DNA from: Oikopleura dioica
Lineage: Eukaryota > Animalia > Chordata
Reading direction: 5' to 3'
Assembly: GCA_907165135.1 (NCBI GenBank)
Contig: OU015566.1
Coordinates: 5,456,001-5,520,000 of the forward strand
DNA length: 64,000 nt
A model generated the notes under the pieces. That model ran no database searches, was not told the DNA's origin, and saw only the letters and a program-made list of their open reading frames with translations. Below, one piece after another: positions 1 through 29,664 of this stretch. A program made the position numbers and the translations under genes. Positions within the stretch are counted from its first letter, which is position 1. Every line of letters starts with the position of its first letter.

Positions 1-171
1 CATCGCCGCGCCGTTAACATCCGTCAAGATTACTACCATGACGATGCGATTGACAAGAATCTCGGTCATAATCAGTTTCTCTGAACTCGCCTGTGCCCGC
101 TCAGATTTTCGTTTATTTATTGATTATCTTGGAGCAAGGAAAATTTTTGTTAACGGGTAATTTCTTAAGAC

Positions 172-3100
172 ATGACTCCAACAAAGCGCCGAAGCGTTCG
201 ACGCCCTGTGAGCACCCCTGAGCCGACAAAAACTGGGCTTAAGCTCAGTCGAAAAACCATGGCTTTGACTCCTATCCCGCGAATGTAAGTGTAAAAATTA
301 TTATGCTAGTAATACCATCAAAATTAAGGCCCCAGCCGTGCTTCAAGAAAACAATGGTGGGACACAAGCGGCGATTTGTCAAGGCATGCCGACGTAACAC
401 CCAGCAAGCGATTTCAAGCGTTGCGTCAATGGCGACCCATTACGCTGCGCCATTTGTTGCTGGAAGTCGCCGAGCAGGAGGTAATTAAAAACTAGAAGAA
501 TTCAATTCAATACTGTTCCAGGCAAGCGACGACGAAGCGGTGGCTCTCCTCAACACTCTCCCCCACGCAAAAAGTCCGTTCAGAAGCATCTGAAGAAAGT
601 GGGCGTTTTGATGAAAGACGCGTTCAACGCCGCCCAAAGTAAGTTCTGTCAAAAAAACTGAATGCCTGTTAAACATGGATCTTTTAGACTTTGCAAATAG
701 TCCAAAAGCTATTTGCCTTGGAGGGCAGATCGGCGATTACGAAGGTTACGTCTCGCTCAAGCACACTCCCTGCCAGCTTTCCTTTAAAAAGCCGCCCGCA
801 TTCAAGGCGCCCAAGCTCAACTTCGATGGCACCGTGACATCTCGACGACGCGGTGGCGAGCGTGTCAAGGTTCCCGGCAGCGGAACTCTTATGAAGGCCA
901 AAAACATCATCGAGCTAGGTAAAGAAAAGTCAAAATGCACACAATTTACGCAGAATTTAGATTAAAACTCCGCTTCGAATCGCCGCAGCCGGCATTTGTT
1001 TACATCTTTGACGAGCGCTTTTTTCCTGCCAACCATTGTTTTGAACTTTGGCACATCTTTTGTTTTTTACTCCATATTGAAACCTGCTCCTCGCTGCTCG
1101 CCTTTAACGCTGTTTTACGAATAGAGACACAAAAATATTATTTTCATTTGTTTGTTTTTAGATGGCCAGAACAAAAGCCGATCTACTCAAAAAAAGACAG
1201 GAGAGTTCGGCTGATAGAGAGACTAGGCGAAAACAAGGTAGCGTATCGCTGTGTATTTCTCCTGTTAATCGTTCTTCAGCTTTTGAGGCGTACAACAACA
1301 TTGTGCGCGTACAATCCAACGGAATGATGGCGGCGAGAAAGCGAAGTGCGCCCCTCCTTTCATCAGGTAAGAGCTTACATCAAGTTTTTTTTTGTGCTTA
1401 AAAAAAGATTGATCTAGCCTCTTATAGATTCAGAGGCAGAGGGTGATCTCCTCATCGACGAGGCAGCCGCCGGAGAGGAAGTTGCTGGCACAACTGGCCA
1501 AGATGAACCTGCCACGAAACCTGCTGGTAAAGCCTTAGTCGCAGCTAGCCGTACTTTGGAAGGTCTTAAGTCTGTAGAAAAGGACGCGGACGAGAGCGCG
1601 AAAAAGAAAAAAGCCAAGGAGGACAAAATCGACGGCGGGGCAAAAGAAGTGCCAACTTCGAAAAAGAAGAAAAAGAAAATCTCGGCTGGCGAAGAACCTC
1701 CAAAGAAAAAAACCAAGTCGGCAAAAGCTCTTAAGAAGCGGGCAAACGAGACGGAAGACAGTGATGAAGATCAGACCCCGTCAGCGCGTAAAAAGACCAA
1801 ACGAGTTCGCCGAAAAATCGTGCCCAAGTCGTACATTACGCAAATCGAGTGGCAACGAGATATCCAAGATTTCACAAACGACAAAGCCGCTCATATCTCC
1901 GACAGCGTTTACACAAACCATCCAGATTCAGCCAAGACTGTCGTAGTCAAATCTGGCGCTTCCACGGTTTTGCCTCGTAGCGACTTGCCCGAACCGAGCC
2001 TCATCGTCGGAGCTGATAGTGTTTTTCCGACAACGATCCCCTTTGATCCCGCTGTGGCTGCCTTTTTCGACCCCGAGATGACAGATAGCGATACAGATGA
2101 AGCCGCAAAAGCAGAGCGCCATGCTCAATACGAAAAACATGCGGCTATTTATCCGATGAATGTTCTCAAATTGCGCCAGGTTTACGCACGATCTTACTGG
2201 ACAATGCGAGGAGTCGCCGCTTCGCTTTACGACACTCGCCTTGGAATTTACGCCAGGAATCTGGCAAAACGATCCAAGCAACTGTTTAAAGACGAAACTC
2301 CCGAATCGCGCTTTCGAGTTATCTTTGAGAGCTCCTCCAAGCTAATGTACGATTCGTTTTACACAAAGCCAATGTCTGCGTCAGCTCCAGTAAAAAAATG
2401 GAAAGAAATTGGGGCCCTTTTTCCTATTTTCAACGTCAACGGCTTTGGCCACTTTGTCGCCGTTGATTTCCGAGTCTGGGTAATGTTTACATCATTGACA
2501 AAAATTTATTTGATGTTTTAGGTCAAATATGATAGCAATTGGAAACTCTTGTCGCTGCACGACATAAATCTTGGTCATCCTGCGGTCACCTTTGCAGGGC
2601 TAAACAATGTTACATCTACAGTGTATCCTTGGCCGAAGGAGGGCGATTACGCACTCGAAAAAAGTGCACTCTTGTTGACGATGGGTCTAGTCCCAATTCC
2701 ACATCGCCCGCCGTACGCTGATGCTGCCGATAAGCTCACAGCCGAGGTAAACAAAACTCATTAAAATCACGAATAAAATCTTTCCCATAGGTCTGCGAAA
2801 TGTTGGGCGTCTTTCGCCCATTACCCCACGGAATGGCTCACGATCAGCGTGACACAATATATTTGGAGCTCGAAAACATGCTTTATCGAAGCTTGATTGT
2901 GTCTAAAGAAGAAACTCTCCGCGCCCGAAGCGAAACCGACGCGCAATTCCCCATCGAAGAGCGCTTTAAAACTCTGGTTGGGCTTCTTGAGACACATTTT
3001 CGCCCTAGCGATGGTGGCTACGCTCCAGCAAAGAGCAAGGAAACAGCGAGACCCACTGAAGAGGCGTTTAGAACGCTATTTGAGGCTCTTCCGCCAGTTA

Positions 3101-3481
3101 TGAAACTCAAGGGGCTAGCACCTTCACGGGAGCTCTTTCGTCGCTTTCTACAAAGTTTGGCTAGCGTGCGATTTACCGAAAATCCAAGGCTTATGCGCAT
3201 CGTAAGTTTAATCTGATGTTGCTTTTTTTGATCTAAAAATAAATTAGTTTGGAGCGCCGACTATTCCAGCTGATATCGTGTCCTGGCAGGGGTGGGCGGC
3301 GCTTCCCGTTGAAGCCCTGTTACCTGCACCCGGGGTGAACGGTGGCAATCTCTTGCGCGAAGAGCTCGAAAAAATGCTTGCCAAGAAGCGACGGATCGAC
3401 TATGGAGCGGCTGAAGACAACCAAATCCCTCGTTATAAAGATTCTGCTCCATACCCGCGCCCTCCAATTACAAAGCATTAG
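172..3481 (+). CDS. Multi-exon Polinton accessory protein with Lys/Glu-rich central region, function unknown
   Basis: ORFs 1556-2521, 2549-2764, 2800-3216 and 3278-3481 join in frame via GT-AG introns 2480-2521, 2747-2790 and 3202-3247. The 5' exons (172-1427) are not fully resolved. Confidence 0.65.
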
Positions 3482-3563
3482 CTTATTTGATGTCACTCTG
3501 TCTGCCAAGTTAAATTTAGCGCTTAAAAACTAAAATTTATTTAAAAAATCGCTCGTTTAGAAA

Positions 3564-6348
3564 ATGCGAATTGTCAGTATTTTCTTTGTTAGCCCGTTGG
3601 TGGCCGCGCTACCTCATACATATGAAGAGGCCGAGCGCTACTGCAATATCGGAAGACATTATTCGACGGAATTCTGTCGCGAATTTCGCGGCGAGGAGGT
3701 CGTAAAGCGAGAGCCGACGACGAGCACAAGTACTACAAGTACGACGACTACGGCGTCGACTACAAGCACGACGTCGACTACAAGCGCGACGTCAACTACG
3801 ACGTCTACTACAAGTACGACCTCAACTACGACGTCGACTACAAGCACGACGTCAACTACTACGACCCGTCAAGAGCCAACTCAGGTGATGGGCGCGTCAA
3901 CGCTACCCGGCAATGATACGGAGGAAATTGTTACTACGGCCGAAATGCCTACGGCGGAAACAACAGTCGCTGCTTCGGACGGTCGACAAACAATTCCAAC
4001 ATTGACGATTCAATTGCCGGAAAGCGAAACAATAATTGCGAGTCCGAATGTAACGGTTCAAAGGTAATTTTTGTGCAATATGTATAAACAGCCGCCCGCA
4101 ATAAAATTCATTATAAACAAACAGCCGGTTTGATATCCTACCTCGAGCGCGGGGCCTACTTTTTTTTGGGGAACAGCGCATTTGTTTTGAACTTTGGCAT
4201 CACCAAAGATCGCCATCATGCGAGGCCCTGCTTTGGTATAAAAAGGGAGCGACTCAAAAACTAATTATCAAAATCAAAATCGATTCTTTTTCAAACAAAA
4301 CAAGAACAAGATCAACTTGAAACAATGAGCTGCCTTCCAGTCTTCAAGAAACTCGGCAAAATCCTCAAGAAAAAAGTCGGCGAGTACTCGCCCAAGAAGA
4401 ACGAGCCAGACAGAGAGGAACTCCTTTACTGCATTCGAAGACAGCCCATCGTCAAGAGCGATGGGTATGCCACGCTCCGCCGGTGGCCCGTGCAGGACAT
4501 GCATTCCTCGTTTCCGTTAGCCGAGGGGCGAAACTGGTCGTACACCCTAACCGCCTAAACCTACAGCTCCGCGCTCACGTACTCACTTTCTTCCCTCTCC
4601 GGTTCCTTATCACTTCTTATGACTCACACATCTCAACCTACGTAATCTATTCTAAAAAATCGTTAAAAAAATCAATAAAAATCTAGAAAATCGATAAAAA
4701 ATTTTTCTTTGTCTAGAAAATTCTAGGGGGCTGGGGATCTTCTATACCTGGAAACACCTGCACCTTGGGATCCCCCCGCGTAGATCAATGAAGCAATTTT
4801 GAGGTGTATGCAGGTATCGCCAAGGTGCAGGAATTTCCTGATAGGGAGGGATCTCAAAGCATAGAAAGTTTCTGACTAACGAATTTTTTCAGGCTGAACC
4901 AAACGACCGGTTACAACCTTTCAACCGGTTCTTTCGATTCGAGCAACTACAGTGTCGGCTTCTGGATTGTATTGACGCTGCTGATCGTGTTAGCGGTGTC
5001 CGTTTGGTGTTGCTGCAGTAAGGATATCAAGCGTTATGCGTGCAATGCCTGGGAGAGTGGCTGTGATTGGATCTACTCCGTGTGTCCCTGCTGCCCGGAC
5101 ATTGATGACGAGCAAGGCGACGGGTACCTTTTGGAACCGCGTGACTTGAGTCTACGATCTAGCTCAAACAGAGGAAGACCGACTGTAGTTGAGAATGCAA
5201 ATTACGTCAGAGGTAAATTCTGTCGATTGTTCACCAATTAATCATTACTAGGAAACGCGAAAAGTTCAAAAAACGCACCGCCTAAAAATTCGCGAATCGA
5301 GGAAGAATTTGAACGCGGCGGAAGCTCCGGCCCGCCTCGAGTTCCACCGCCGCCCGCTCCAACACGCTCTCGCGCGGCGAGAAAAAGCGCCAGCCGCCGC
5401 ACGTCTAAGCCCGCGCCCAAACGCATTCCAAAGCAACTTGTTCTTCCTCGACCCAAAACCTATGAGCCGAAATTCGAGTTTTCCCAATCGGACGATGAAG
5501 ACGACTGTTGCGAGACTTCGCCGCTCAACAAGCCGCCGAGCTGTACGGCACCCCCGCGCCCTAAACCTCCTCAATTAACGGTAGCTGCCTTTATTTTTGT
5601 TTCTTAAATTAATTTCGTTTAATAGAAAATCGAAACGGAGGAAGAAACCACACAAATCACAAAAGAGGATACGCCCCAGAATATTAAAAAAGAACCTAAT
5701 GAGGGTTCGTGGGTTTCGAACCTTTTCGGCAAAGCGTAAGTCTTTCCGCCACTTTGTCATTTTTAAAAATGTGCACTAGACTCAACTTAATTCCGGCTCT
5801 CCCCGCTCCAGTCCATCAAGCGGACGCAAAAGGTAATTTAATTTTCATAATTGCGCTGCTTAAAAATAAATTTAGTCGAGATAAAAAATGAAAAAGACTG
5901 CAAAGAAGAACTTGCTTGGTCGCCCCCAACCGCCGAAACCATCTTGGCCCAACCAAGCGTCAAAGTTGAAAATGAACAAATGACTCCTGTTCAAACTTTC
6001 TCCGCCCCGTCTCTCTCCTTGGCGGAAGTCGACCCTGACGAGAAAAATGCGCCTATCGTCGCACTTGCAGACACAACCGCTTTCAATGGTTTTGATGAAA
6101 CCGTTTTTCCCGTCGACACCACCGCCACCGCCGAGGGCGTTGACGACGGCGACAATGTCTCATTCTGCAGCGAAATTACGCCACAACAAACTCCAGAGCA
6201 ACCACATCGCGCACTTCCAGACATTGTGTCTGATCACGAGTCGCCAGTTATTGCGGCTCCAAAGTGTCCCTCGGCGCCCAAGAAAGAAAAAGTTATCTTC
6301 TCACGATACGGCCGCCGCGTGCAAGCACCAAAAAGATTCGAGTCTTGA
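3564..6348 (+). CDS. Type I membrane mucin-like glycoprotein with long Pro/basic-rich cytoplasmic tail
   Basis: Signal peptide MRIVSIFFVSPLVAA, Thr/Ser tract and sequons NDT, NVT, NQT, NLS, NYS. Intron 4064-4892 joins in frame to TM VGFWIVLTLLIVLAVSVW-CCC. Further exons run to the stop at 6348 (later joins less certain). Confidence 0.75.
3718..3865 (+). repeat. Coding ~18-bp degenerate tandem repeat (Thr/Ser tract)
   Basis: ACGACGTCGACTACAAGC-like units encoding TTSTTS. Confidence 0.85.
4237..4243 (+). promoter_or_regulatory. TATA box upstream of nested ORF
   Basis: TATAAAA ~85 bp before ATG 4325, preceded by the element motif TTTTTGAACTTTGGCA (4183-4199). Confidence 0.5.
4325..4558 (+). 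CDS. Small basic protein (77 aa) nested in the glycoprotein intron
   Basis: Intact ORF MSCLPVFKKLGKILKKKV..., with its own TATA, lying inside intron 4064-4892. Confidence 0.5.
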   Translation: MSCLPVFKKLGKILKKKVGEYSPKKNEPDREELLYCIRRQPIVKSDGYATLRRWPVQDMHSSFPLAEGRNWSYTLTA

Positions 6349-6481
6349 AAACTTACCACTTCCACTCTCTCATCAATCTATGTTCACTCCAATTTTAGCT
6401 CCATTCTCACACTCTCGCTCTCATTTTTGAATTTTAATTGTTTTTATATTTTTGTTTTGGATATTTTGTTTAGAACTTTGC

Positions 6482-8253
6482 ATGAGCCAGGCCGAGCTCG
6501 ATGGTGAGTGTGAGATTGTCTCCGAGAATGCGCCGACCGCAACCGCTAGTGGCGGGGCCTCCGCAGCTAAACGGGCAAGCAAATCATCAAGAGCAAGAAC
6601 GACAAGGTCGTCGAGCCGCCGAACAAGAGCCGACGCCCAGAACTCTTCGTCGAATAATGATGCGAGTAGACAGCGCGGTTCGCTTCCGAGAAGCAACAAA
6701 CGAAGAGTTCAACAGGCTAAGAACGGAAATAGCGGCGATCAAGCAATGTCTGATCTTGCAAAATCAGGCTATGAGCTTTCCTCCGCAAAACAATCTACAA
6801 CAAGAACAACAAGTCGAGCAGCCGATGCGCTGGATAACGAAACAATGGGTGAGTTTTTTGTCAAAAATCTATAATAATCGACTGTTTAGCAAAATGCGAA
6901 GTTATTAGCTCGCGCAGTTCTTCAATATGCGGACGAATTAGCCGGAACAGTCTTTCTAGCGCTTCTTATAACCGTTGCGCCAGCGTTGGCGATTCGATTG
7001 CTAATGCAGAATTAAAGGACGAAAATCAAACGGCAACAAAATCGCTGTCGATTCGCGCCCTGCGTAAACGTCAGAAAACCCCCATATTTGAACAATCTTG
7101 GCCCGAGTACTTTCAAGCCATCTGGGACAATGCTTACAATCGAACGAGTTTATTCGAAAATTGTCCCGTGAATATCGTCGGCGGTAATCGTTACTATCCT
7201 GAAAGTGGGATCAATTGGGCGCTTGCGATCATGAGAAACACACCCGAGGATTCAATCAAAAAAATGCTTTTGGGCTCGTCGTTGATCGATGGAAGTGTGC
7301 TTTATGGCCGACAGTATAACGAAACCGATTCTTTACTGCCGCCATCGCCGCAGCCGAGCCGCACTGCACCGAGCCGTACGGCGTCCGAATCAGATTCGTT
7401 TCGATTTTTTGATGCCAATCTTTGCGAGAAATATCCGCCGTTTCAACAACAAAGCGTCGCTCTCGCGACTCTTGAATTTTCCGTCATATTGGATGTAAAA
7501 TGTGTCCCGTCGTATCTTGTTGATGGAAGCCAAGCAACGGACCTTAACAAAGTACGCATTGTATCATTTGCGCTGCGCGATGTTGCCGAAAAAAAATCAA
7601 TGTTTGACGATACAGAACGGCATCACGAGAGCGAGTTTAATATCGGCGCTGATATTTCAGAAGAATGCATTACAGCAATCCGTCAACTCTGCACAAAATC
7701 GTATTACGACACGAAAATATCGCCAAGTTTTTCGACATCCTGCTGCGATATTCAAACGACCGCGTTTTGGCGAACACAAGTTTTGGACTACTATCTCACA
7801 ATTTGTGCGATAACAGACGCGCTAACCGAAACAGCGCATATGACAACGGTGGAGGACGAAAATTTTATTCCGCTCATGTACAAAAAGCTACAGCTGATTG
7901 AAAACGCTGCAACGGCTACAGTCGACGATCAGCAACAACAACGAGGCGAGGAAACAAATTTACCAAAAGTCCACAAAATGCTAGAAGATCTCGAGCGTGC
8001 ATTACAGCGGATTACACTTTTGCGTGATTCGTGCAAAAATGCCCACATCAACTTTTTAATAGGAAAGCGCTCCACTAAAATTCTGTCAACAAAAAAACAA
8101 ATTTGTAGAACGCGCTCTAAAAGTCTGCCGGAAATTTATCACCGAATATGTTCGTCAGCAAAGAGGACACATGAATCTCGTCTATTCACATACAAAATCG
8201 GAGATGGCAATTCTTTTGACTCGATTAAAAGGCGATCAAGAGACGTCGGATGA
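6482..8253 (+). CDS. Two-exon accessory protein (~575 aa), Ser/Arg-rich N-terminus, function unknown
   Basis: MSQAELDG... joins via GT-AG intron 6849-6889 in frame with ORF 7168-8253. Confidence 0.7.
6501..7015 (+). CDS. Overprinted tail-anchored coiled-coil protein (~157 aa)
   Basis: The alternative frame is open on both sides of the same intron 6849-6889 and ends in hydrophobic GTVFLALLITVAPALAIRLLMQN*. Confidence 0.55.
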
Positions 8254-8358
8254 GCGGCTGCGTCGTGAGATTTTGCTTAAAAGACTGGAAAAACTGCGCC
8301 AAGATGCAATCAACTCACATAGGCTGGGGTTATACCGATCGATTATCTATCACGAATA

Positions 8359-9438
8359 ATGGATAAGTTTAACCCCAAAAGACAAACCATGCGCCGCATA
8401 ATTTGTGTCCTTCATCATCGTTATGTTGCCTTTCAAATCGCCCGGAGAGAGAGTATGGACGAACGATGTAACGAGCTGCTCAAGCACAAGTCGATTCTAA
8501 ACGAAGAGTATCTGTCAGTAAAACGCCATCAATATAAATTGCTGCTACAGAAAAGTGAATACGACAGTGCCGATTTCAAACTTTATCGCGCGCGCCCCCT
8601 CGAATCAACCAGCGGAAGTGTTATTGAACATGCGCTCTGGAAACGTCAAGACGGTGATTATCACCCTGAAACACCAATATGTAGCAGCGGTGAAGATACA
8701 GACGACGGAATTCAAGACATTGAGGACGTCAGCTTGGACATTGAGCCGTCGATAAGCGACACAAGGTGCAAATATACAAATAATTAATATTTGATTCTTG
8801 TTTAGCAGAATATCCGCGGCGGCGCGATCAAGTGAAGAAAAAAAGCAATTGCATGTGCCGCCTCTACAAACTGCGCTGTCCCTTCTCACGCCAGTAACAA
8901 CAGCAGTAAGCAGTACTGCATGCACAACTGCAGAACAGAGTACGCTGAACCAAATTGTAAAAACTGCGGTCGCCAATTCTAATCTTCGACTCTTTACTGG
9001 GTCAAACAACACGCCCAGTCATCGAGTGGACAAGCTTCCAAAAATCGAACAACCGACAGACCTATCTTGTAAGCTCTTTTCACTCCTTCCCATAATTTAC
9101 TTTCAGTTTCAAATAAAATGCCGCCGCCGCAACATGTTCCGCCGCCGCCAAGTGTGCGGCCTGCCGTAGGGCCCGCCGTAGGGCCTGCCGTAGGGCCCGC
9201 CGTAGGGCCTGCCGTAGGTCCTGCCGTAGGGCAAGCCGTAGGGCAAGCCGTAGGGCAAGCTTTGTCTGCAGTACCGTCTAGGCCTACCGTAAGGCCTGTT
9301 GTCCCTCCTTTTCGCCCATCGTCAAACGAGAACATGTACAACATCAACGAGTGTGTTTATCAACCTTCTACTTCCACCGCCGCCGCCGCCGCCGCTTTAG
9401 AAAACTCTTTTGACCAAATGTTCAACAATTATCAGTAA
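8359..9438 (+). CDS. Multi-exon accessory protein with acidic and Pro-rich (PAVG)n regions
   Basis: ORFs 8359-8787, 8798-9169 and 9118-9438 are separated by short intron-like segments (~8766-8807, ~9069-9106). Exact joins were not checked. Confidence 0.55.
9160..9258 (+). repeat. 12-bp coding tandem repeat GCCGTAGGGCCT/GCAA
   Basis: About 8 units encoding PAVG/QAVG. Confidence 0.9.
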
Positions 9439-9535
9439 AATCATTTATTTCTATGCTAACCTGCTCCTGACAAGTTCACTTTTATAAAAAAAAACACGAA
9501 AAAATAAATGTTAATCGTTGTATAAAAAAGCGTTT

Positions 9536-10517
9536 TTATTGATTCAACCAAGAGGGAGGATAAGTGAGTACAATTATTTGGAAACCAAGGATTCGGTGAA
9601 GTCGAACGTTGCTTTCTTTGTAAACATTTCGACGGAGAAACGTATTTTGCAGCAGTTTATCGGCAAAAGCAGTCGGCTCCAACTCGGCAAGCATTTGATC
9701 CAGGTCCTTTTCGTTTCGCAGTATTTCTGTATCGTTTAGGCTTCCCCATGTATTCGGGTACACTATTTCGTAGCGCGTGTCAACATATGACTCGCCACTC
9801 TCGTCGGTAAATGTGTTGCTACTTTTTGTAATGTACCACGCGTCGACCGAGATTCGCAACAGGCCGTTTAGATTTTCCGCAAGCTGCTTGACAATGTTTT
9901 GAACATTGGCATCGTTCAACAGCGAAATTGTATACTTGTTGCAGAGCTGTGCATAGCGGCTATAATAATCGCCACCCAACTCGAGTTGATTTTCACGCCA
10001 AGATTGCCCTGAATTTGTTTCCAAATATAAAAACCTACAAAACAAACGTATATAGTAAATTGGAGGAAATCGTAATGAGTCGGCCGCAGTGAGCATTTTC
10101 ATTTCTTCAGGTTGAAAGTAGCCCTTGGGTGGGTTTTTATGCGGGATCAGCTTGTCCAAGAATTCGCGATTGGCCTTGCTCCCCGTTCCGAGAAAATCGC
10201 CTTCGTAATTCCAATCTGGCACCGCTTTTGACGCAGGAAAACCAATTCATTTGATGGCGACTCAAATTAAATCGCGGATCGTCAATCTCATCCAAGTCGA
10301 CGAAGCGCTCAGGCGGATTGAATTTGACGCGAAGTCTTGAATCCCGACGCTTTCGGAAAATATAATCGACAATGTTTTCGCCTTCTTCAATATCCGCATA
10401 TGATGATGATGATGATGATCGTCTATTGTTAAAGGAGTCGTCTGTGTCAGCAACAACAGAGCCATTTGCTTTTTCCGACGGTTTCAAATAATTGAAAATT
10501 GTATTCTTTGAGCCCAT
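9536..10517 (-). CDS. Putative stand-alone terminal-protein-like gene (one frameshift near 10225)
   Basis: ORFs 10137-10517 and 9536-10222 join by one base at GTCAAAAGCG. The C-terminal pattern (ILRNEKDLDQMLAEL...SNVRLHRILGFQIIV) resembles the N-terminal region of Polinton pPolB. Confidence 0.45.
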
Positions 10518-10556
10518 TCTGAAAAAAGAACAAACCTTACTTACAAAAACATTTAA

Positions 10557-13500
10557 TTAGACAAATGTGTTGTCAGAGTAGATCAAAGGTGATGTGGAAA
10601 TTTTGTCGTCGGCTACAAGACGTTTTTTAAGCACATTGTTGAATACAGCACGATTCATTAAAAATGTTCGCATTCTGTCTCGCTTGCGATCCATTTGCAT
10701 GACGGGTACATCCTTTCTGATTTGACGATTGTAATCGGCGCCAAACACGGCGGCAAGATACTCGTAATGGCTGTGACAGTGTATTTATCAAATCAGTTTT
10801 TGCACTTACCCAAGTTGAACTTTTTCTTGCAACCTTTGGCAGATTTTTTGACGACTTTTGTTGGCACAATATCCTCATCCTCCATCTGCGCCAAAATGTC
10901 CAAAACGCGATACTCATTTTTAGGATCACAAATTTGCCCGTCCATATCGCAGGGCTCTTTCTCCACCATGGCATAACATTTTGGACTCGGAGCCAAAAAC
11001 CAGCCCGATTTTATTGAGACTTCTTTTAAGCAGACCGGGCTCCTTTTGTGAAGCATCGTCACCATCGACGGCAAACCATGCCGGGCGAATCTCCTTTTCC
11101 CACTTGTCTTTGAGTTTTGGATTGACGCACTTGTGCACGCTGTCTTTTGTCAACGCCAGTATAAAGGAATCCGTATCAGCATAACAAAACTTGTACGAGC
11201 CGGGCATCAAATAATCGCGCAAAATCTGTTCAAATTGCATAAACAACAATTTTGAATTCTTTTGAAGGAGGATCGACACTCTGAGACTGGCGGGGTCCGG
11301 GGGTCCGGGGCGGAGCCCCCGAGGGCTATGGTTGCCGGCCGTACCGGCCGGCGGGGGTCTGGGGTTGCCGTGCCGAAGGCACGGCCAACCCCCAGTCGCA
11401 CAAGGTTCCGGACGACCGGGCCAGGCCTGGATGGAGCCGTGCCGTGCCGTACGGCCGGCACGGCCACCAGCCAGGTTCAGGCCAGGGAGGACGGCAGTTT
11501 TGGTTGTTGGTGGTGCGGGTGGTTGGTTGGTGGTGGTTGGGTTTGGTGGCGGGGTTTGGTGGTTGGTGGTGGTTATTGAGGGTTCAAGCTTACAGAATAT
11601 TATTCAAAATAGGCGTAGAGCAAAGCATTTTGGCGTTTGGGTTGACAAAATTTGAAATTCTTTTCTAAAATACAAGCGCGCGTTATGGTGATTGTATTTG
11701 TCGAAAATGACATTTGTTTTGACCTTTGGCCGCAATGGTTGATTTTGGTTGCCTTTGTTTTGATCTTTGGCAGCATTGGTGGTTCTGGGTTGCCTTTGTT
11801 TTGCTCTTTGGCAGCATTGGTGGTTCTAGGGTGCCTTTGTTTTGATCTTTGGCAATTGTGATTTTGCACCAACAGAATTCAGGAATCATTCTGCCGTGGT
11901 TTCCGATAATGAGGGTTCATTTCTAATCCTAGTAGAATGGCGTCAGGGTATTCCTGCTGTTCATCCTGTATCATTTTACTCAAATTGCCAGAAATTAAAA
12001 AAAATTTATAAAGATCTTTTTTAAAGGGTTGTTATGGTTTTTGAAAAAACATTTGTGAGAAGGGGATTCGAACATAGAGGGTAAGCATTACGACCAGCAA
12101 GCGTCAATCTAAGAGTACTTTTGCTCGCTATCGCCGCGTTACTTCAATAGTACCGCCGCAATAGGGAACAGGGATTGGGCTGATGAGAGGGAGGAGAGGG
12201 GAAAGGAGAATGGGCTAGTACAGCTCAAATTTAGCCGCCTTACGCTCTGCTTTAGCTCTATATCCACTCGGCCATCGTTCACGGTCCTCCTTTCCTGATA
12301 GACAAAGATTTGAATCGGCAAGGCCAAATCTTCGGTAACATTCTTTTTTCGACGAACAATCTCATGCAGCGGATCTAATGCAACATCTTCGACTCTTAGC
12401 TGTTTTGTTGATTTTAACATTGGCGAACGTATTGCATCGTACATTTTATCGGCGCCGACAATTGAGCAAGAAAGAAAGCGGTAGACGGCCAAAGCAAAGC
12501 GGCCAACCATTGCATTGAGAATTAATTTTATGACAAGTTGAAGACCCGCGTTTTTCTTGCTCAAAGCGGTTACGCGATCCTTGACCATGTTTGCAACAAA
12601 TTTTTTGAATGGAGCTCCTTTGTAGTACTCGACAAAGTAGTGAACTTTAATCTTGACGCCTTTGTTATCAAGAAACTCTAGCATTTCGCTGGTTGCCATG
12701 TAATTCTTTGCATTGTAGCAAAACACATTTTCTTCGCTTGGATAAAGTCGCTCCACGGTTTTTTGCGGAAGAACGCGCTTCATATAACCATTGAGTGTGT
12801 CAGTCGTTAGCTCCGTTTTTGCAAAGATGGGCGGAATAAACGGATTTTCATCTATAACTTTTTGCGTCGAAGAAAGATCAACAAGCGCAAGTCCAAAGAA
12901 TTTTTTCGCGCGCAAAGCTGCCAAAAAATCTTCTTCCGTCACACCAGGTTTGCCTGGAATCATGCCGCTAAAATTTGGCTTCGCTCCTTTATACAAAAAT
13001 GGATAAGTTGGCGAGTGTGGCGCTTCATTTGCAAATTCAGCATTTGTCCAAATTTTCAGCCATTGACACGCGTAAACAATGACAATCTCATGAGGAAAAT
13101 TAAGAGGACCTTCTTGCTGTAAAAGATCGTCTTTGTCCTCGCCAAAAATTGGATCCAATTCAAAGGGCAAGTAACCTGCCATTATGGCCTCTTCGCGAAG
13201 AGTGTCAACAATGGCGTGCATTCGGGCGTCATCCTCTGCTTGCAATTGCTCTGGAGTGATTTCCTTGTAGATTGGCTTCCCACCAACTGATGCGACCTTC
13301 TTTTTGCATCCTCGCCAAGGTTTACGCTTACAATGCGGGCACGTATGATAAGAGCAGCCTCTAAATTCGAAAATAACTTTTTTTCGTATTGGGTTCGCAT
13401 CATCGTCGCCGTAAATATGATAGAGACGATTTGTCCCGCTAATAAACTCATCCAAAACAGTGTATCCGTCAACATGATGCCTGCCAATCTTCTTTTCCTC

Positions 13501-16500
13501 ACCATTGTACGAGTGCTGTATTTTACCGTTGTACGTTTTCCAATTCAAATATTCAAGCCATCGAATAGATTCCAAAGATGTGTTTTGCTTCTGCGCGTAA
13601 AGACCGTCATTGAAAAAACGAACTTCGCCATCTTTATAATCAGAGCTCGCTGTTATGGGCGCTTGAAATCTCGAGTTATTAACGTGACCAAAAACACTAT
13701 TTAAAGTGTACAGTATGCCAGGGCCAAGGGGGAGATTTCTAGCTACAGCCCATGGATAAAGTGAATTAAAGTCGAGCCCTTCCAAATAGACGTACCGTTC
13801 GCCATTTGGCGCATGCGTTGCGGCCTTCGGAATGCGCGGATCGTCGTGCCTTTCATTCAAATATATTGCGCGATGAAGAACTTGGCAAATTCCACCTTGA
13901 AGCTTTGCTCGACAATCTTTGTAGTAAAACGCCGCCTTTGGTGGCGGAGAGTAGATTGGCGGGAGCTCGGAGTCATATTGCATCAGCGCAATTTTCTGGG
14001 CCATCTTCGCTATTGACAAATCCGCATGAATTCCAAGACCAAATTTTGTCTTATAGTTTTCGGCGTAAGCGTCAATACTTCCCGTCAATAATTTTACATC
14101 GTTGAAATTGTTGTTGATAAGGAATATCATCATTGTCATTTTTTCACCGTCGCCGGGGTTCTTACTCTCCAAATCGGCAACCATTCGCTCCCACAATTCT
14201 TTATTTTCGTTGTATTTTTTTGGTTTGAATCGAAAAAAATCTCGCACCGCGGGATCGTTTGGATCGCATTGATGGCATCGAACCTCTGGGTCGTAGATGA
14301 ATTTCTTTCCTAAAAATCTAACATGCTCATCGACAATTGATCGTGGAGTTCTGTTATTTTTATCGCACCACTCTTTTAGCACCGGATCGTCAAGAAGATT
14401 TCTCAAGCACAACCAGTCAGACAGCTGGCATATAACCGCTTCGTCACGTTGCCAACGATCTTCACTTGTGTCTTCGCACTTTTGCCGAATCATAAGATTG
14501 ATCTTTGCGGCGTATTTTGAGCCCTTGTTGAGTGCGCCACTTCCCATTGTCGAATAAAAGCACGTATACGCAGGAAAGCGTTTTGCAGCTTCCAGCTGAT
14601 CAACTCGGGTATACCATTCATATGGAAATGAACCCTTGGTGTATTCGTCGGGATTGAGCCCCATTGATCGCGCCAAATCGGCCAAACTTCCTGGTGCAGA
14701 GTAGTTTTTGAAATCGCGAAAGCTCAACCCAGCCGCATCCAAGAGCATATAACCACCGTCGCGTTTGATTGTTGAAATTTGCTGACTTTGCTTGCCCGAA
14801 AATTCGTAGAGCACAGATACAAGCATTGGATATAAAACACATAAATCGTATGTTTCCCCATACCACGAGTAAATTTTTAATTTGTAAAAATCACGCAAAT
14901 AATTTAGCTTTTTGCGCATCGGAACGAGTTCATCAAACGAATACTTGCTTCGTTGCTCTTTATCGCCCAATTCTTTTGAATAAAAATCGACTCCATCCTT
15001 GATCATTTGCGGGATTTCGGAAATCATCTTGTCGCGAAGTTGCTTCAAGTAATTGACAAATTCAGCCAACATGACAAGAACCGAGCTATAATCCATGTTT
15101 TTTCTTTTAAAAGCGCGTCTTTCTCCATCACTTGTCATGCAGGCAAGAGTCGCCAAGTTGTGAAATTTTCGTTCGTCGTTAAATTCACATGTTTCCGTTT
15201 TTAACATTCCCTCGCTCATAAGACATTCGATATCATAAGTGCAATAATAATCCTGCGTATAAGAAACAGACGGTAAGTAGTTTTCATCGACTAATTCTTT
15301 GACAAAGTCAATAACACGGGGTCCAAGAACTGATTGACGAATTCTGCAGGATGTCTCGGCTGTGCAATTTTTACGTGTGCACGCATATAAGACGCTTTTT
15401 GATGAGAGTAAAGACAGTTTTTAGTCGGGCAAACAGGCATATCGATAACTTCACCACGATGCAAAATTCGGCAGAGAGTGTTGTCGCTAAAAACATTTGG
15501 CACAAGTGCCGCCAAATTTCGAATCGGACGATAAACAGCATCATCTTCCCTCTCATCATACGAGTCATATCCATCACAATCGTCGGTCCCGTCAGAGTTG
15601 CAGTCATCTTCTGCAGCCATCGAGTCAATAAACGGGTTTGCGCCGAGGCCCCCGTCATATTCCTCAAACTCGCCTTCATCAAGAACAACACTTTCATTGT
15701 CGTTGTCGTCGGTTTCATAAGTTGCGCCTTCGACAAGCCCCGCGGCATCCACATCGCCTTCATCAATAACATTTGCGGCAAAACCGCGATCCGCGTCAAG
15801 GCGTCGCTCGCGTTGATATTCGCCATCCGCTGCAAGAACGGGATTGCGCCACGGGTTCCGTCGTAATTCGTTGTAGGAAACTCCCGCAAATTTTTTAAAT
15901 TCAATCTCGAATTCGTCCGGAGTATAACTTCCAACAAGCAAATTGAGCGGATTTTTTCCCAAGATTGGTTTTGTGGCGTAGAAACACACTTTGTTGTTAA
16001 CATTGTCGTTGACAATTTTGCCAATAAAGAGACGAATTGGCAATTGGTAACGTGTTCTTATGCGTTGAAAAACACCGTCGGCAATACTAAACATTTCGCG
16101 ATCATCGATGCACATCTCACGTTTGACTTCGACAATTTTTTCGTCTTGTTCGGTTTTGTTCAATTTTGGCCAACGATATTTTACAATAGCTCGCCACAAA
16201 TTTATCCAGTCGCGGTCCCGCTCCTCAGCGACTTTTCGTGTTGGAATAACGTAAAAAGGACCAAGTGTATGAAAATAGGGGCGAGCACTTTGCAGAATAA
16301 CAAGCGGTCGATCAACATGTTCGTTGTTGGTGTGGCCAGACTCGTACTTTTCCAAAACGTTGCGAATGCTCAACACTTCAGCCGTTCTACTCGGTCTGTA
16401 TGATATACCAAGTGGGCTGTATTTTCCTCCATACAATAGATACAAATCAATATTTAAGAACTCTTCAATTTTTGGCAAATCCGCTCTTGTTGGTTTAGGC

Positions 16501-16841
16501 CCAAATCTAACCTCCAGCATTGACGTGTTGCATTTTAAAAGATCGTCCTTAAGTTCTTGGTTGATTGTGGTTGGCACCTTTGGAGCAATTTTTTGAAGAA
16601 AATTCCACCAATTTTTCCCAAATAAAAGCGCGTGATAAATGTTTGTCGTTTCTAAATCAATGTTTCGCATTTCTGTGCCAGTTCGAAATTTCGTTCCTTC
16701 CGCATAAGAAGCAAGAAAACGCCGTTTTTTGTTTTTATCAGCATTGGATAAGCCTACAAAGATTAACTTGTAATCACATCATTTTCTCTTTAATTTACCT
16801 TCTTTTGTTTTTTTATCTGGATAGAATCTTGAAAGTTTCAT
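10557..16841 (-). CDS. polB: Protein-primed family B DNA polymerase (pPolB), ~1700 aa, spliced
   Basis: ExoI TYDIEC (just upstream of ORF 12139-15219), GLDFNSLYP, KLILNAMVGRF, YADTDS, KSAKG, and an internal VDG...EFRGCSYH..C nuclease-like insert. Introns 16798-16754, 12294-11259 and ~10810-10772. Frameshifts at ~15370 and ~11025. Confidence 0.93.
11259..12294 (-). other. 1036-nt GA-AG intron/insertion in the polymerase palm
   Basis: Removal restores ...FVYQ|NSKLLFMQF...YADTDS. Starts GAAAGGAGGACCG, ends CGATCCTCCTTCAAAAG. Confidence 0.8.
11715..11855. repeat. 41-bp tandem repeat x4 inside the polB intron
   Basis: TGTTTTG(A/C)(T/C)CTTTGGC starts at 11715, 11756, 11797 and 11838. Confidence 0.9.
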
Positions 16842-16897
16842 TTTAGTAATATGACATTTATTGTACGTGCAGACATTTATATAAGAAACGTTATCGA

Positions 16898-18720
16898 TCA
16901 TCCTTTTCGTCTTTTGGAGTTGCCCTTGTTGACGCCGCGTGTGGTGCTATCGACTTTTGTATCCTTTGTGCACTTTTCTTCCAAAGCCTTTAATTCCGCA
17001 GACTTCCGTTTTTTACCAGAGGCGTTTTTCTCCAGGACGGTCGCTTCTAAAAAAAAAATTAACATGCGCAATTCTGTAAAGCTCAATTACCATTTCGATT
17101 TGCGTCCAGAAACAGTTCGTTTCTCGGAATTCGGAAAATGAGCGTGTCCCACGTAGCTTCAAGCGGTGTCTCAAATTCTATCCTTATTGTGACGTTTGCC
17201 GTATTTCCTTCGCGATCGTCAAAGAATAATGGAACCATCCAGAAATAATCCCGGAAAACGAAAAAATCCTGGCCAAGAGCGTTAGCTTTGTTATCCCATC
17301 TTCCATTATGCTTCATAAAATTTGTATAATGATCTGTCGCCGTAGTCCATGGTGATCGAAATTGCGGCACATTGTTGACAAAGACGGTCAGCTGCTTTAT
17401 TTTGAAGTCGGGATCGGCCATTGTCGTTTTGGTGAGGCACTGTCGAAAGGATTTTATCTCATAGCGAGAGTGAGGCATTCCAGTCAGCACAATCATTTTT
17501 GGAAGGGGACCAGTATTAACCTCAATGTCGTAAGTTGACAAATTTCCGGACAGCGATTTTCGCGTCATTCGGGGATAAAAGAATGGTAGCACTCCCTCCC
17601 CTTTGACACCAGTCGAAACGGGCTTTTCCGATTTTCCGGGTTCGCAGAATACCGACTCCATAATGTAATTTTTGGGGTCAACAATATCTTCAGGATCGAG
17701 TGTATGCTTCATCCAAATGTACTTCTTTTTGTCATCCTCTGGACAAGGTGAGATGATTGGCGTTGTGACTTTAAGAGTGTGAGCCTTCCACGGAGCTTCT
17801 GCATCACCAGAGTTTATTTTTGTTTTTTGATAAAGTAGCGATTTATCAGTGTATTTTGCCTCTCCAGCTTTATAAACTTGTTCCAAATCGGTGTATTCTC
17901 CAGAGTCGTATTTTGCAGCCGTGCAATCGCAATCCTCAGCAGTTTTATGCTCCATCGGTTCACCGACAGTCTTCATTCCAGTTGGAAAGGGCCATTCCAT
18001 ATTTGAGACAGCGTCTTCGCTTACTCGGCACAGTTGAAACTCGCTCAATTCCATCAACACGCGCGAAATGTAATTGAGTGTAACTTCAAGCGACGGTCGT
18101 GAGCCTGGGGGTAAGACGCGAGGTTGACGCGCAAGCCCATGAGTTATTGGCGCTCGGAAATCGTAGTCGTAAAAGCATCGTTCGTATTTTTGAGGTTGAT
18201 CACCAGTTTTAAAAACGACAGCTTCAGAATGAGTTTCCCATCGTTTTTGTCCATATTGCTTCCGGTTTTCAGCCAATGTTTTATTATTCCGAGCGAGCTT
18301 TATATATTCAAGCTCGTATGAATCCGCTTCCAAGCTATCGAATCGACCATATGGAAAAAGCTCGCAATCCTGCGCCAATGGAGAATAATTCAATTTTGTG
18401 ATGGCTTGACTAAAGAAAGCGTGCTCGTGATCGTCAAATGATGAGAATATACGGTTGTCCAGGATTTTGATATCCAGTTTTCTTACAAGTTTTCCATGAA
18501 CATCGTTGTCGGGTACATAGTTTTCGGGCATTGACAATCGAAACCGAAACATGCACTCCGAAAGTTTGAGCGAAAACTTGTCATCCGGCACTTCAAAAAG
18601 GACGCGGTTTCCACAGTCAAATTGGCCAGCTCTTGAAAGAACTTTATAGCCTTTGTACGGATCGTCATCGCAGCGAACATCACGATTGTAGAACAAAAGA
18701 TTTCCAAAGTTTTCTGTCAT
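16898..18720 (-). CDS. Double jelly-roll major capsid protein with a short basic C-terminal exon
   Basis: Patterns YVPDNDVHGKLVRKLDI, TKLNYS, HGLARQPRVLPPG, GPLPKMIV, FVNNVPQF..P, VTIRIEF match Polinton MCPs. Intron 17090-17047 adds EATVLEKNASGKKRK... Confidence 0.8.
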
Positions 18721-18724
18721 GTGC

Positions 18725-19165
18725 CTAAAATATTTTATTTAAAACGTTGAACAGTTTTAGCAAATTCTGGCAAAAGCCGATCTTGCTATCAAGGGTTACA
18801 ACAAGGATCAAAATTAAGATAATTAAAGAAAATGCGCTCATAACAAGTGCCAAATCCCGCGGATGCATTCTCATCGCCTGAAAGAGACTCTTCGCATTTT
18901 TCGCTTTCGCCGTCCACCAAGCGGAATAACGCCACCACCACTTGTCACAAGATAAGCCACCCGTGTTTTCGCCTGCGGCTTCTTGGACGATTTTTTCCTT
19001 TTCAATTGCTTCCTTGCTCGCGAAGTTGATCGTCGTCGTCGTAAAATTGCCATTTTGCGTGATGCTTATGCCCCTGCAATTGTTGATGAAAACGCGCCAA
19101 CACAGCCTAAACAGATTCTTTATTGATTTCGCCAACACTTGTGACTTTGTTAAGTTCATTTTCAT
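18725..19165 (-). CDS. Small membrane protein with C-terminal TM helix, overlapping the integrase end
   Basis: MKMNLTKS... with TM LALVMSAFSLIILILILVVTL and a Trp-rich patch KWWWRYSAWW. Confidence 0.55.
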   Translation of the reverse strand: MKMNLTKSQVLAKSIKNLFRLCWRVFINNCRGISITQNGNFTTTTINFASKEAIEKEKIVQEAAGENTGGLSCDKWWWRYSAWWTAKAKNAKSLFQAMRMHPRDLALVMSAFSLIILILILVVTLDSKIGFCQNLLKLFNVLNKIF

Positions 19166-21011
19166 AGAAACGCCGGTTGAGCGCCGCGCCGCGTGCATCA
19201 TGGAGCGTAAACGTCGGAACAAATGTGCCCCAATGAATTTTAACAATTTTATAAAGTTCGGCGGACCAATTTGCCGTTGCTCCCTTTTTAAAAGGATTTT
19301 TTCCAAGCGCATTCACTGGAATTCGGACCAAGTCCCCGATGTAAAATTTTGTTCTTGTTTTACGGGCCCCAATATTTCGACGTTTTTGCTCCAAAATCCG
19401 TCTTTTGGTGGCATATCAATAGCATTGTGTACAGTTGCGTTATACATCGCATTAATATCTTGAAGGGCATGAATCCAGCGCCGCAAACCATTGTGCTCAT
19501 CAAAATAACGCTGCAGTCTCCCCTCGAGCGTTTGACTAAATTTTATTAAAATCTTCAACAGCGACGTAAACTTACATAAAGCGCTCTGCGATTGATGATT
19601 TATGACGCCCTCGAAGTTGATGAGGAGTTATTTGCCATTTCTCCAATAGCGGCAAAACGGCTCCTTTAAATTCATTGCCGTCATCGACCATAAGAAACGT
19701 GTGACCGGGTAAATCCAAGCGCTTTATGATGTCTTCAAGCGCTGCAGCCGTTTCTTCCGCCGTCTTGCGCTTTAGAGGGCGTACAAAGCTCTGACGTGAT
19801 AAACCATCCACAACAACAAGAATATATCTGTAGCCATTATTGATCTCAACATCGTTGGCGAACCATTCACAAGTATCAGCAAATAGACAAGTATAAAGTC
19901 CAGTCGCAATAATGGGATTACGGCGAAAACGTGATTTGTAGGGTTTGTGCATTGAGATTGTTTTGTTACGACGTTTAAATTTTGCAAGATCCATTCCACT
20001 ATAAGCAGAAGCGTTTTTCAAATTGTAAAAAAGATTTGCAGATGGCGATGTTGTGCCCGGTTCATTGCCAAAAGTTTTCCACATCGCTGATCGGGGACCC
20101 CTCATGAGGCGTGGATCCCTGCTCGCTTTGCTCCGATTCGTCCGATTGTTGAGCAGTTGTTGATCCTCTGGGCGGTTCGAATTCAGTAACCACTCGTTTT
20201 GATTTCTTTGGTCCCTTTGCGTAGGAAACATGCGGCTGTTCGCTTCCGGATTCGTTGTCACTGATGACAATGTACTTGCTTTCGTCGCTGTCGTCGCCTC
20301 TCGGGCCTGGGGTTGCCGCACGTTTTCGCTCAAATCTGACTCTTCGAAATCCATCATCTCGACGTCTTCGTTGTTGTCGTTGTTGGTTTGCATACTGCCG
20401 AATGATTCGTAGTTCATGTTCGAGTCGGCGTCGCTTTGCATATTCGCGTCTTGCAAGCCACTCAAACCTTGACGCTTCTCCGACCACTGTTGGGTGCCAT
20501 TCTCGTCGATTAGCGGATCTGTCGAATTCCACCATCCGGTGTCGCTCTCGGGGAGCTCTTGAATATCTGGGAGTCTCTGATTCAATTTCTTCAACGGGGG
20601 TTCGCTCTCGCCTGTCATCATGGTTAGAAACGAAATTCCCCCGGTTCGCGTGATCAGAGCGGGCGCTACTACCGGCGAAGCGCTTGTTGGTGACGTTGGA
20701 TCTCCGATTCCAATCTTGTTCAGATTGTTGGATAGATTCATTTGCCATGAAGCCGCGATTTCCAGTGGGTTCTGACCCGTTGCCACTTGCTGCGCGTTTG
20801 TTTTGATCTTTGCCAACGCGCTGTCCATCGGTTTGGGTGTCTCGACCGACCCCGTTCTTGCGATACTCGGGGTCGTCTGGAGTGTCGTCCCAGTCGGAAA
20901 AGTCGTCGTAGTCTTCGCCAAATTCTCCGAGAGCCTTCGATTTCCCAACGGGATAAACTCGGTCGCATATTCGTCCAAGTAAGCCGGCCGTTTTACTCGC
21001 CTCTTCGTCAT
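19107..21011 (-). CDS. Retroviral-type (rve) DDE integrase of Polinton class
   Basis: ADT...YRYILVVVDGLSR, VDDGNEF, AERF|IQTL (40-nt intron 19575-19536), YNATVH, GDLVRI..FKKG..NWS..FYENEL. One frameshift near 19380. Confidence 0.92.
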
Positions 21012-21141
21012 AGTCTGGATAGGGAGAGCCTTTTGTTTTTGGAGCGGTAAATCGTATTTCACCGGTATCTGGATTTGTTTCGTACTCGGAACAAAAATGG
21101 TCTATACAGTCAAGCGGGATGCACGCGTACGGATTTGGCAT
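20062..21141 (-). CDS. 359-aa acidic/Arg-rich protein overlapping the integrase 5' region in another frame
   Basis: ATG-initiated uninterrupted ORF with an Arg-rich helix (RREYAKRRRLEHELR...QRRRRDD). Confidence 0.6.
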   Translation of the reverse strand: MPNPYACIPLDCIDHFCSEYETNPDTGEIRFTAPKTKGSPYPDYDEEASKTAGLLGRICDRVYPVGKSKALGEFGEDYDDFSDWDDTPDDPEYRKNGVGRDTQTDGQRVGKDQNKRAASGNGSEPTGNRGFMANESIQQSEQDWNRRSNVTNKRFAGSSARSDHANRGNFVSNHDDRRERTPVEEIESETPRYSRAPRERHRMVEFDRSANRREWHPTVVGEASRFEWLARREYAKRRRLEHELRIIRQYANQQRQQRRRRDDGFRRVRFERKRAATPGPRGDDSDESKYIVISDNESGSEQPHVSYAKGPKKSKRVVTEFEPPRGSTTAQQSDESEQSEQGSTPHEGSPISDVENFWQ

Positions 21142-21353
21142 TTCATTAGAAAATGATAATTAAGCTAAAAAAACGAGTATTTATATACTTAGTCTGTTAA
21201 TGCTGCTTACGTTTTCTCTTTCTCTTCCGGTCTGTACGTTAAACTAGATATACATAGAATTTATAGTATATAAACGTGCGCCATCGAGTGTTAATCCTTT
21301 ACGCGCATATAAATACCCCTGCGAAACGGCAAATCTGGCAAGACTGTCAAAAA

Positions 21354-21743
21354 ATGAATCCAGTTGAAGCTGAAGCTAGAGAAAACTGCTGGCCCGTACA
21401 AGCGGAGATTTCTGGTTATCGAACTGATCTTTGGCCTACCCGATACTTTGTCCGTGCGACCCCTGTTGAGGGTGGTTTGCGAATCGACGAGAAACTACCT
21501 GCCTGGTACAATCGTCTTGAAGAAGGTGTCGAATTCACCGCCTTTGTGAGCGACCAAACTTTCAACTTGAACAACCCCGAGGAGAAAGCGTACTTTGAGT
21601 CGCTTGAGAAGAAGTTTAAGCGAAAAACCGGCGTCATCTGGCTCACCGACTGCCTGGATCGTAAGAAGGCGGGCTACGAGCCTGAGGGAAAAACCAAGGG
21701 ACTCTTTGTTGCCCGGGCTTTTACAGCATGCCCAACTATTTAG
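21354..21743 (+). CDS. Hypothetical protein (129 aa) upstream of the ATPase
   Basis: Intact ORF MNPVEAEAR..., whose end overlaps the ATPase start. Confidence 0.55.
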   Translation: MNPVEAEARENCWPVQAEISGYRTDLWPTRYFVRATPVEGGLRIDEKLPAWYNRLEEGVEFTAFVSDQTFNLNNPEEKAYFESLEKKFKRKTGVIWLTDCLDRKKAGYEPEGKTKGLFVARAFTACPTI

Positions 21744-22537
21744 CTCGTTACTGTGAAGACTTGCGATTTGAGCACCCCTGTTGCTTATTGGTGAGTGGCC
21801 ACTCGGGCGCTGGAAAATCAAATTTTATAAAAAATACGATAGAGCATAATGGAATCAGAGGTACTATCAAAACAATTTTTTATTTTATGCCCCGATTAGA
21901 ACCCTTAGATATTACTCCCGCTCCACATCAGCGTCTTTTTGTCATGGCGGGTCTTCCAACGCAAAGTTGGATAGACGATACTTTTAAAGACAGTACGCGT
22001 GATACAATGCTTGTTATCGACGATATGTGGAGCGCGTGTATTGAAAGTCCTGTAATTGAACAATTAGTAATTTATGGCCGTAGGCATCAGGGGATCTCGC
22101 TTGCATTTACATGTCACAATTTCTTCGAGCGATCTAAGAGGTCAATAACAATACGGTAAGTCTCTAAATTTGAATAACATTTTTGATTTATTTTTAGTCT
22201 TTGCATGACCGCAGTCATCTCGTTTATCAGTGAAGCCGATTTGAGTGCAAACCGCGTCATCTTCAGCAAAATGGGATTACTCGAGCCATTCAAGGCTGCT
22301 ATCGACCTCTTCAAGAAGAAACGCGTTTCAAAGCATCAATACGTTATTGCCCGAAAGGATGTTACAAAACCAACACAGGCGAAATTCTACACTAACGTCT
22401 ACGGTGAAATACCCGGATTGAACGGTGTTCCTTGGGTTCTGGCTTTTGATACTGCAAAACACGTTTATTCTTCCAACATCAAATATTTTTGTTTTATTGC
22501 AGGCAAAAGAGCTAAAATTTTATCGCAGGTAGATTGA
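21728..22537 (+). CDS. A32/FtsK-like genome packaging ATPase
   Basis: LRFEHP, Walker A GHSGAGKS, Walker B LVIDD, GRRH motif. The 42-nt intron 22156-22197 joins TIR|LCMTAV in frame. Confidence 0.9.
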
Positions 22538-22973
22538 GTGTGCACAGTTTTGAATCAATTTTGACAGGATTGTTCATCTTAGCAATCGCGGTAAGTGGCT
22601 GATCGTCGGGATGTGAGGAAAGAATGAGGCGGTACAATTTACTTTCGATTCGAGTTATAGCCTTGCTGAGCTGGATTCTTCTTTTTCTGAATTTTTTCAA
22701 GCCTTCTTCTACTTTATCGATTCTGGCCCGAAGTTTTATATTAACCGGATGGTCTGCATTTTTCGGAACGGTGTGCCTTGCCTTGTAGTTTTTCCATTGT
22801 CGCTCCTGCATAAGCAGCTTTCGAATTTCAACTTCACTTTTGCCAAAAAGTTCTTTGAAAATGGCTAGTTGCTTCATAAAGAGATTTATCTCGACTTGAG
22901 TAGGAGTGTGCCATTCAACATGGGCAGAAAAGTCTGAAAAAATTTCAACGCGATATATCCGTAAAAGTTCCAT
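22512..22973 (-). CDS. Coiled-coil hypothetical protein
   Basis: 153-aa ORF with a basic heptad segment (LRARIDKVEEGLKKFRKRRIQL). Confidence 0.45.
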   Translation of the reverse strand: MELLRIYRVEIFSDFSAHVEWHTPTQVEINLFMKQLAIFKELFGKSEVEIRKLLMQERQWKNYKARHTVPKNADHPVNIKLRARIDKVEEGLKKFRKRRIQLSKAITRIESKLYRLILSSHPDDQPLTAIAKMNNPVKIDSKLCTLNLPAIKF

Positions 22974-23399
22974 ACTTTCTTGAGTGTCTGGTTCTCATTT
23001 TATCGCAATAAAAATGGCGCCATCAAATACAACCGATTTCACACAATAGCGGGATATTGCTTCAAAAGAGCGCATAACGCTTTGTTTTGATCATTGGCAG
23101 TGTGAAATTGCCGATAGAAAAAAGGGAAACCATAACGGTGTGATCGATCTGAGACAACAGTAGCACAGTAGATATTCAACAAAATTGTTAAAATGAATGC
23201 ATGGCCTCTATTTGAGTTTTTGAACTGATGCCTATAGCTTAACATCACATAAACTACCAACAAGACCAATTTTGACTCTTTATCATAAAAAGGCAAAATT
23301 TATTTTCTAGAATTATTATTGTTTATTGCAGCTTAAAACGTAAATTTGAGAGATATACAGTGTTAAAAGCGCATAGTTTGTTTGCAGATGCTAAAAATC

Positions 23400-29350: not shown

Positions 29351-29664
29351 CTTCCTCTCTTTACAAGTCCCTATCTCCTTAAATTTTTACTGGGGCCGAA
29401 ATATTTTGATACCGAAATCGAAAAGCCGCTTGCGGCTTCGAGCTAAAAATAATGGAATAGCCGCGCGAGGCGCGGCTTTCATTTGAGATCACCAAAACGG
29501 ACCAAATTGTAATAGTAATGGTCTGTTCTGATGATCACAAATGAAAGCCGCGCCTCCCGCGGCTATTCCATTATTTTAGCTCGAAGCCGCAAGCGGCTTC
29601 TCGACTTTGGTGTCAAAATATTTTGGTCCTCTATTTTAGGAGATAGGGGCTAGCAAAAGAGAAG
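29351..29664. mobile_element. Foldback/MITE-like palindrome (~310 bp)
   Basis: Arms such as AAGCCGCTTGCGGCTTCGAGCTAAAAATAATGGAATAGCCGCG match their near-perfect reverse complement across a ~25-bp loop. Confidence 0.75.

Follow-up and report, generated by a model that had tools for sequence, protein, structure and literature searches.

The window analysed here is a stretch of 64,000 nucleotides (nt) from Oikopleura dioica (contig OU015566.1, positions 5,456,001 to 5,520,000), in which trypsin, RING and long terminal repeat (LTR) retrotransposon genes are also present. Judged from its gene content, the region at about 9,500-22,500 is a Polinton, which combines an rve integrase, a probable capsid gene, a protein-primed family B polymerase gene (polB) and an A32-like ATPase (Table 1), and this O. 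dioica Polinton is intron-rich. The polymerase was recognized by PF03175 (E = 1.6e-11; 44.2 bits, cut-off 25.8), and the rve match of the integrase (25.9 bits) was below its cut-off of 32.6. Directly downstream of polB lies a separate and conserved gene (9536-10517, minus strand), which likely encodes the terminal protein (TP) of the element. A previous reading made from the letters of the window alone (the sequence-only reading) had proposed that a TP-like domain was split off from polB at this place.

The peptides quoted in that reading (LRISVDAWYIT, RYEIVYPNT, SLNDTEILRNEKDLDQMLAEL and SNVRLHRILGFQIIV) all lie in the open frame 9536-10246 (minus strand) and belong to a real gene, as 15 of 244 candidates matched the protein at E = 1.5e-33 or better with 47-59% identity. 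Matches to an unbroken relative (P0002) run over 10376-10239 and then, in a different frame, over 10240-9548, so that the upstream piece 10137-10517 (minus strand) is part of the same gene with a single break near 10240. The gene is predicted to consist of two exons separated by a 39-nt intron, which the sequence-only reading had not noticed, and its protein has about 310 residues. All seven loci in which the preceding motif could be located have an intron at this codon; it is about 39-46 nt long with a GT or GC donor, and several of its lengths are not multiples of three. Over exon 2, synonymous differences between loci L004 and L008 (pS = 0.93) far exceeded non-synonymous ones (pN = 0.068), indicating purifying selection on the protein. 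The frame breaks of the window near 15370, 11020-11047 and 10240 each occur at a short single-base run, typical of long-read assembly errors.

A profile search of 1.84 billion proteins returned 23 matches, namely 20 short proteins (56-272 residues), two proteins fused to polB (P0016 and P0018, left out of the family alignment) and one repeat protein (P0031), which the profile matched in seven stretches and which was discarded as a false match. No Pfam family was common to more than one member among the open reading frame (ORF) and 37 alignment members, and no PHROGs family was common to more than two. Scans of IMG/VR with the TP, polB N-terminal, whole polB and palm alignments found no relatives, and neither did a scan of a phage collection. 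In the ESM Atlas, the best score for the TP-like ORF was 0.88 with low recognition, and the GAF-like leads were rejected. A distant member (27-28% identity) at 276-5600 of L012 has polB and TP-like genes cut by many more short introns.

The core of the protein is predicted to have a PRD1-like TP fold, taken here as a four-stranded sheet (with an optional extra strand) and two helices in the order b1-a1-b2-b3-a2-b4. The model (pLDDT 76) has strands at residues 81-90, 100-110, 129-147, 153-162 and 215-229 and helices at 115-125, 179-188 and 191-204, which follow this order with one helix beyond the minimal fold. The top viral fold matches in BFVD were an adintovirus protein (E = 4.7e-5) and a MELD PolB (E = 5.7e-4), for which the matched region was not displayed. 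The four-strand, two-helix fold predicted for residues 100-232 is also that of the little-finger/PAD domain of Y-family polymerases (Dpo4, Dbh, Pol eta, iota and kappa), to which the model aligned weakly; little-finger domains, the expected best PDB fold match for a PRD1-like TP, were not among the matches listed in a wide fold search.

All 34 alignment rows spanning the column have a serine in the model loop at 205-214, between a2 and b4, and L012 keeps this invariant serine. In adenovirus and PRD1 TPs, the linking residue is a serine or tyrosine before the last strand (Krupovic 2024, PMC11161782). In all D1 models of the same paper, a Gly or Pro stands close to the linking residue, a trait that accompanies D1 rather than defining it. 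On this point the protein speaks against our assignment: the window copy has neither residue beside the serine, and only about seven of the 34 rows have one within four residues (counted by eye). For this reason, we class the protein as a likely homologue with a TP-like mode of action and not as a proven member. The likeness was drawn from the fold and the features described in Krupovic 2024. With these reservations, the predicted fold, the invariant serine and the viral fold matches favor the proposal that the ORF is a TP split from polB.

The start of polB at 16841, implied by the range given in the sequence-only reading, is confirmed by a match to P0053 from residue 1, and the relatives of polB in L004 and L008 have about 1800 residues in almost one frame. 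The polB N-terminus gave no match to the TP-like protein and was modelled with an OTU fold instead, in agreement with the suggestion that polB begins without a TP region. In a vOTU protease, helix 1 should begin with the catalytic Cys, and the last strand should carry a His. In the OTU domain of polB, Asn, Ser, His or Thr stands at the helix start in nine of nine rows, and no His was found after the last strand in the eight close rows (register set by eye from the aligned ranges); we predict that this domain is inactive. The preceding conserved domain may, by its motifs, resemble a second degenerate vOTU. A tandem duplication of the vOTU domain was seen by eye only and was set aside, as hhalign of the polB N-terminal halves gave no match (0.1%). 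A BFVD search with the model of the N-terminus (poor, from a four-sequence alignment) had no match at E <= 0.001, with OTU proteins only at ranks 11 and 21; a word search for shorter relatives of the N-terminus found none among 1581 candidates, and the ESM Atlas gave no usable match (best 0.80).

Two further parts of polB are described here as side observations. The 1036-nt interruption at 12294-11259 (minus strand) has GA...AG ends, a non-canonical intron type common in O. dioica, and includes 41-nt tandem repeats as well as a hairpin-like block rich in GC; at this codon, P0051 and P0053 leave the frame too, and L004 and L008 are uninterrupted there. An insert between polB motifs A and B (about 13100-13580, minus strand) appears to resemble a VSR-like nuclease domain. 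A domain of this kind has been described in marine pPolB2 Polintons (PMC10748475).

The TP-like gene is downstream of polB on the same strand, as had been stated, with the polB end at 10557 and the ATG at 10517. This order is conserved: the polB C-terminus lies directly upstream on the same strand in eight of 12 metagenome loci, that is, in all eight that are long enough to tell, the other four beginning inside the gene. L004 has the order of the window (integrase, capsid candidate, polB, TP-like gene). The order is also the same in L011 and L012, which are near-identical to each other and only 28% identical to the window protein. The polB stop and the ATG are 29-63 nt apart in the window and six loci (39 nt in the window and at most 60 nt in six of the seven junctions), and all seven have a pyrimidine-rich tract, AG, one base and then the ATG; the junction of L009 has the same pattern. 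An AG one base before ATG occurs at only 95 of the 1739 ATGs in the window. A TATA-like word is present upstream of polB (16841-16870), but upstream of the TP-like gene there is none in the window or in five of six loci. TATA-like words also occur at 21180-21330, upstream of the divergent pair of the integrase and ORF 21354. Operons of O. dioica have been delimited by a maximum gap of 60 nt between genes, and a single spliced leader serves to resolve them (PMC7986045); trans-splice sites carry an AG acceptor (PMC6883708). Same strand, a spacer of at most 60 nt and an unpaired AG acceptor before the downstream gene are all present in the window, and such an acceptor-like junction suggests that the element makes use of host operon processing. 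Four RNA runs yielded 11 partial reads, less than 90% alike, with no joints.

Alternatively, the ORF could be a terminal exon of polB, with the stop removed by splicing, giving a circularly permuted polymerase with a C-terminal TP domain. The public models P0016 (1292 residues) and P0018 (689 residues) do have the domain at the polB end, a strong acceptor stands just before the ATG, and non-canonical donors are used in O. dioica (PMC7072748). However, both are automatic O. dioica models with differing joints and look like prediction errors; P0016, which by eye corresponds to the polB and candidate frames of the window itself, leaves polB at its frame break, resumes in exon 2 and lacks the polB C-terminus. 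The other 21 profile matches are short proteins, apart from the repeat protein, and all seven junctions retain a stop after the conserved polB end. Read-through of this stop is ruled out by the downstream frame, which varies between loci; since the junctions also have no donor of the required phase in common, the data agree neither with read-through nor with a spliced fusion that is conserved, and we regard the fused polymerase as very improbable. The ORF might instead encode some other conserved alpha/beta protein of viruses, or one that derives from a TP but serves another purpose, with priming left to the first polB domain or an unrecognised gene. This seems unlikely, though less so than the fusion, because both significant viral fold matches come from Polinton-related viruses, the invariant hydroxyl residue is exactly at the linking position, the adjacency to polB is fixed even at 28% identity, and searches with the first polB domain (from a poor model) returned neither little-finger nor adintovirus matches.

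If the gene encodes the TP, as we favor, polB would link the first nucleotide to the hydroxyl of the TP serine at both ends of the linear element after its excision, and the TP would prime in trans through this serine, as established for adenovirus and PRD1. The N-terminal extension may dock the TP on the polymerase, and with no fused primer left to cut, the vOTU domain may have lost its Cys. Transcription of both genes would start at the polB promoter, and the AG acceptor would be the site where the TP message is released, in the simplest case through spliced-leader trans-splicing by the host; for this step by itself we put the chances at about even. The fuller scenario, that a larvacean Polinton clade swapped protein-level for RNA-level primer release by placing TP in a host-style operon behind polB, freed by spliced-leader trans-splicing, and that the vOTU protease died, perhaps after duplicating, is tentative and somewhat short of an even chance. 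If it is true, a DNA virus lineage has a replication module that depends on host trans-splicing, and the adenovirus split was replayed independently with the gene order reversed.

Adenoviridae likewise have a stand-alone PRD1-like TP with the linking serine between the last helix and the last strand, an N-terminal extension and an inactive vOTU on the polymerase. Their pTP has roughly double the length, includes a large helical insertion and is encoded upstream of pol in the transcription unit; no integrase accompanies it, whereas the Oikopleura gene is in an integrase-bearing element. The canonical Polinton pPolB (TP-vOTU-EXO-PALM, P1-CB type, PMC11161782) belongs to the same polymerase family with a vOTU fold ahead of the exonuclease, but its TP is fused N-terminally and is thought to be cut off by the active vOTU, whereas the candidate Oikopleura TP is encoded by a separate downstream gene. 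StCAV, a Stylophora coral adintovirus/Polinton (Krupovic 2024 PNAS, PMC11161782), also has a separate TP gene and a vOTU at the polB N-terminus. Its vOTU is catalytically intact, whereas the Oikopleura OTU domain has no Cys, and this comparison covers the separateness and not the gene position, the Oikopleura gene being downstream of polB, intron-bearing and clade-wide.

According to the sequence-only reading, an independent split with a downstream TP would be a novel architecture. The split is not, as it is already described in StCAV and arose independently in several Polinton groups according to the same paper (PMC11161782), and the downstream position appears to be unreported in the literature searched. 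A simple cut of a fused gene is insufficient for this position, which requires a rearrangement. What appears new is therefore the rear position, its presence in the whole clade and possibly the release by trans-splicing. A literature search, mostly outside subscription papers and Repbase, found no paper that deals with the TP of an Oikopleura Polinton, with a TP gene placed downstream or with Polinton genes being trans-spliced, and neither did look-ups of terms in PMC8502044, PMC10748475, PMC11957031, PMC8363768 and two 2026 preprints. Krupovic 2024 (PMC11161782) proposed that the TP-pPolB split makes the vOTU obsolete and leads to its inactivation, with evidence from adenovirids alone, the StCAV vOTU being active; the Oikopleura clade, with its split and its missing catalytic Cys, appears to be an instance that arose independently. 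The candidate TP of this clade is small, is encoded on its own and has a single clear candidate for the linking serine, which makes the Polinton priming model directly assayable. For annotators, it should be noted that automatic gene models fuse or truncate the polB and TP-like genes.

Table 1. Positions of the TP-like gene, polB and other genes of the Polinton in the window
Feature	Position	Strand	Remarks
Exon 1, variable N-terminal extension of candidate TP gene	10048..10517	-	ATG at 10517; frame break near 10240
GT-AG intron, 39 nt, phase 1	10009..10047	-	splicing predicted from sequence
Exon 2, conserved core, predicted PRD1-like TP / little-finger fold	9536..10008	-	model pLDDT 76, fold searches, family alignment
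Invariant serine codon, predicted DNA-linking residue	9611..9613	-	loop before last strand; Ser in 34/34 spanning rows
polB stop-to-ATG spacer, 39 nt	10518..10556	-	ends in pyrimidine tract, AG, one base
Protein-primed family B polymerase gene	10557..16841	-	putative introns 16798-16754, 12294-11259, 10809-10771; frame breaks near 15370 and 11020-11047
OTU-fold domain of polB N-terminus	15909..16280	-	catalytic Cys not present
First conserved N-terminal domain of polB	16236..16649	-	conserved in 8 close relatives; model pLDDT mostly <50
Probable major capsid protein gene	17083..18720	-	genes 35% and 33% identical, same place, in L004 and L008
Retroviral-type integrase gene	19107..21141	-	several frames, introns probable; rve E = 1.3e-5; order as in L004
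A32-like packaging ATPase gene	21728..22537	+	probably two exons; Pox_A32 E = 1.1e-4, slightly below curated cut-off

The product of the capsid candidate, which we take to be probably the capsid protein, had no Pfam or PDB match, and no protease or minor capsid gene was found. Neither terminal inverted repeats nor a 6-bp target duplication was found within the window, and one end of the element may lie before position 1. Rfam gave no match in 9000-24000. The plus strand of 1-9400 carries small-intron genes without Pfam matches, which run convergent to the TP-like gene. In L010 and L002, the corresponding place is occupied by relatives of 6853-8253 and 8323-8787, which makes at least these genes part of the element. 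An LTR retrotransposon at 33189-39816, with protease, reverse transcriptase, RNase H and integrase on the minus strand, has two identical 234-nt LTRs, suggesting a recent insertion. The imperfect palindrome of 300 nt at 29356-29662, 81% self-complementary, is probably a small non-autonomous transposon.
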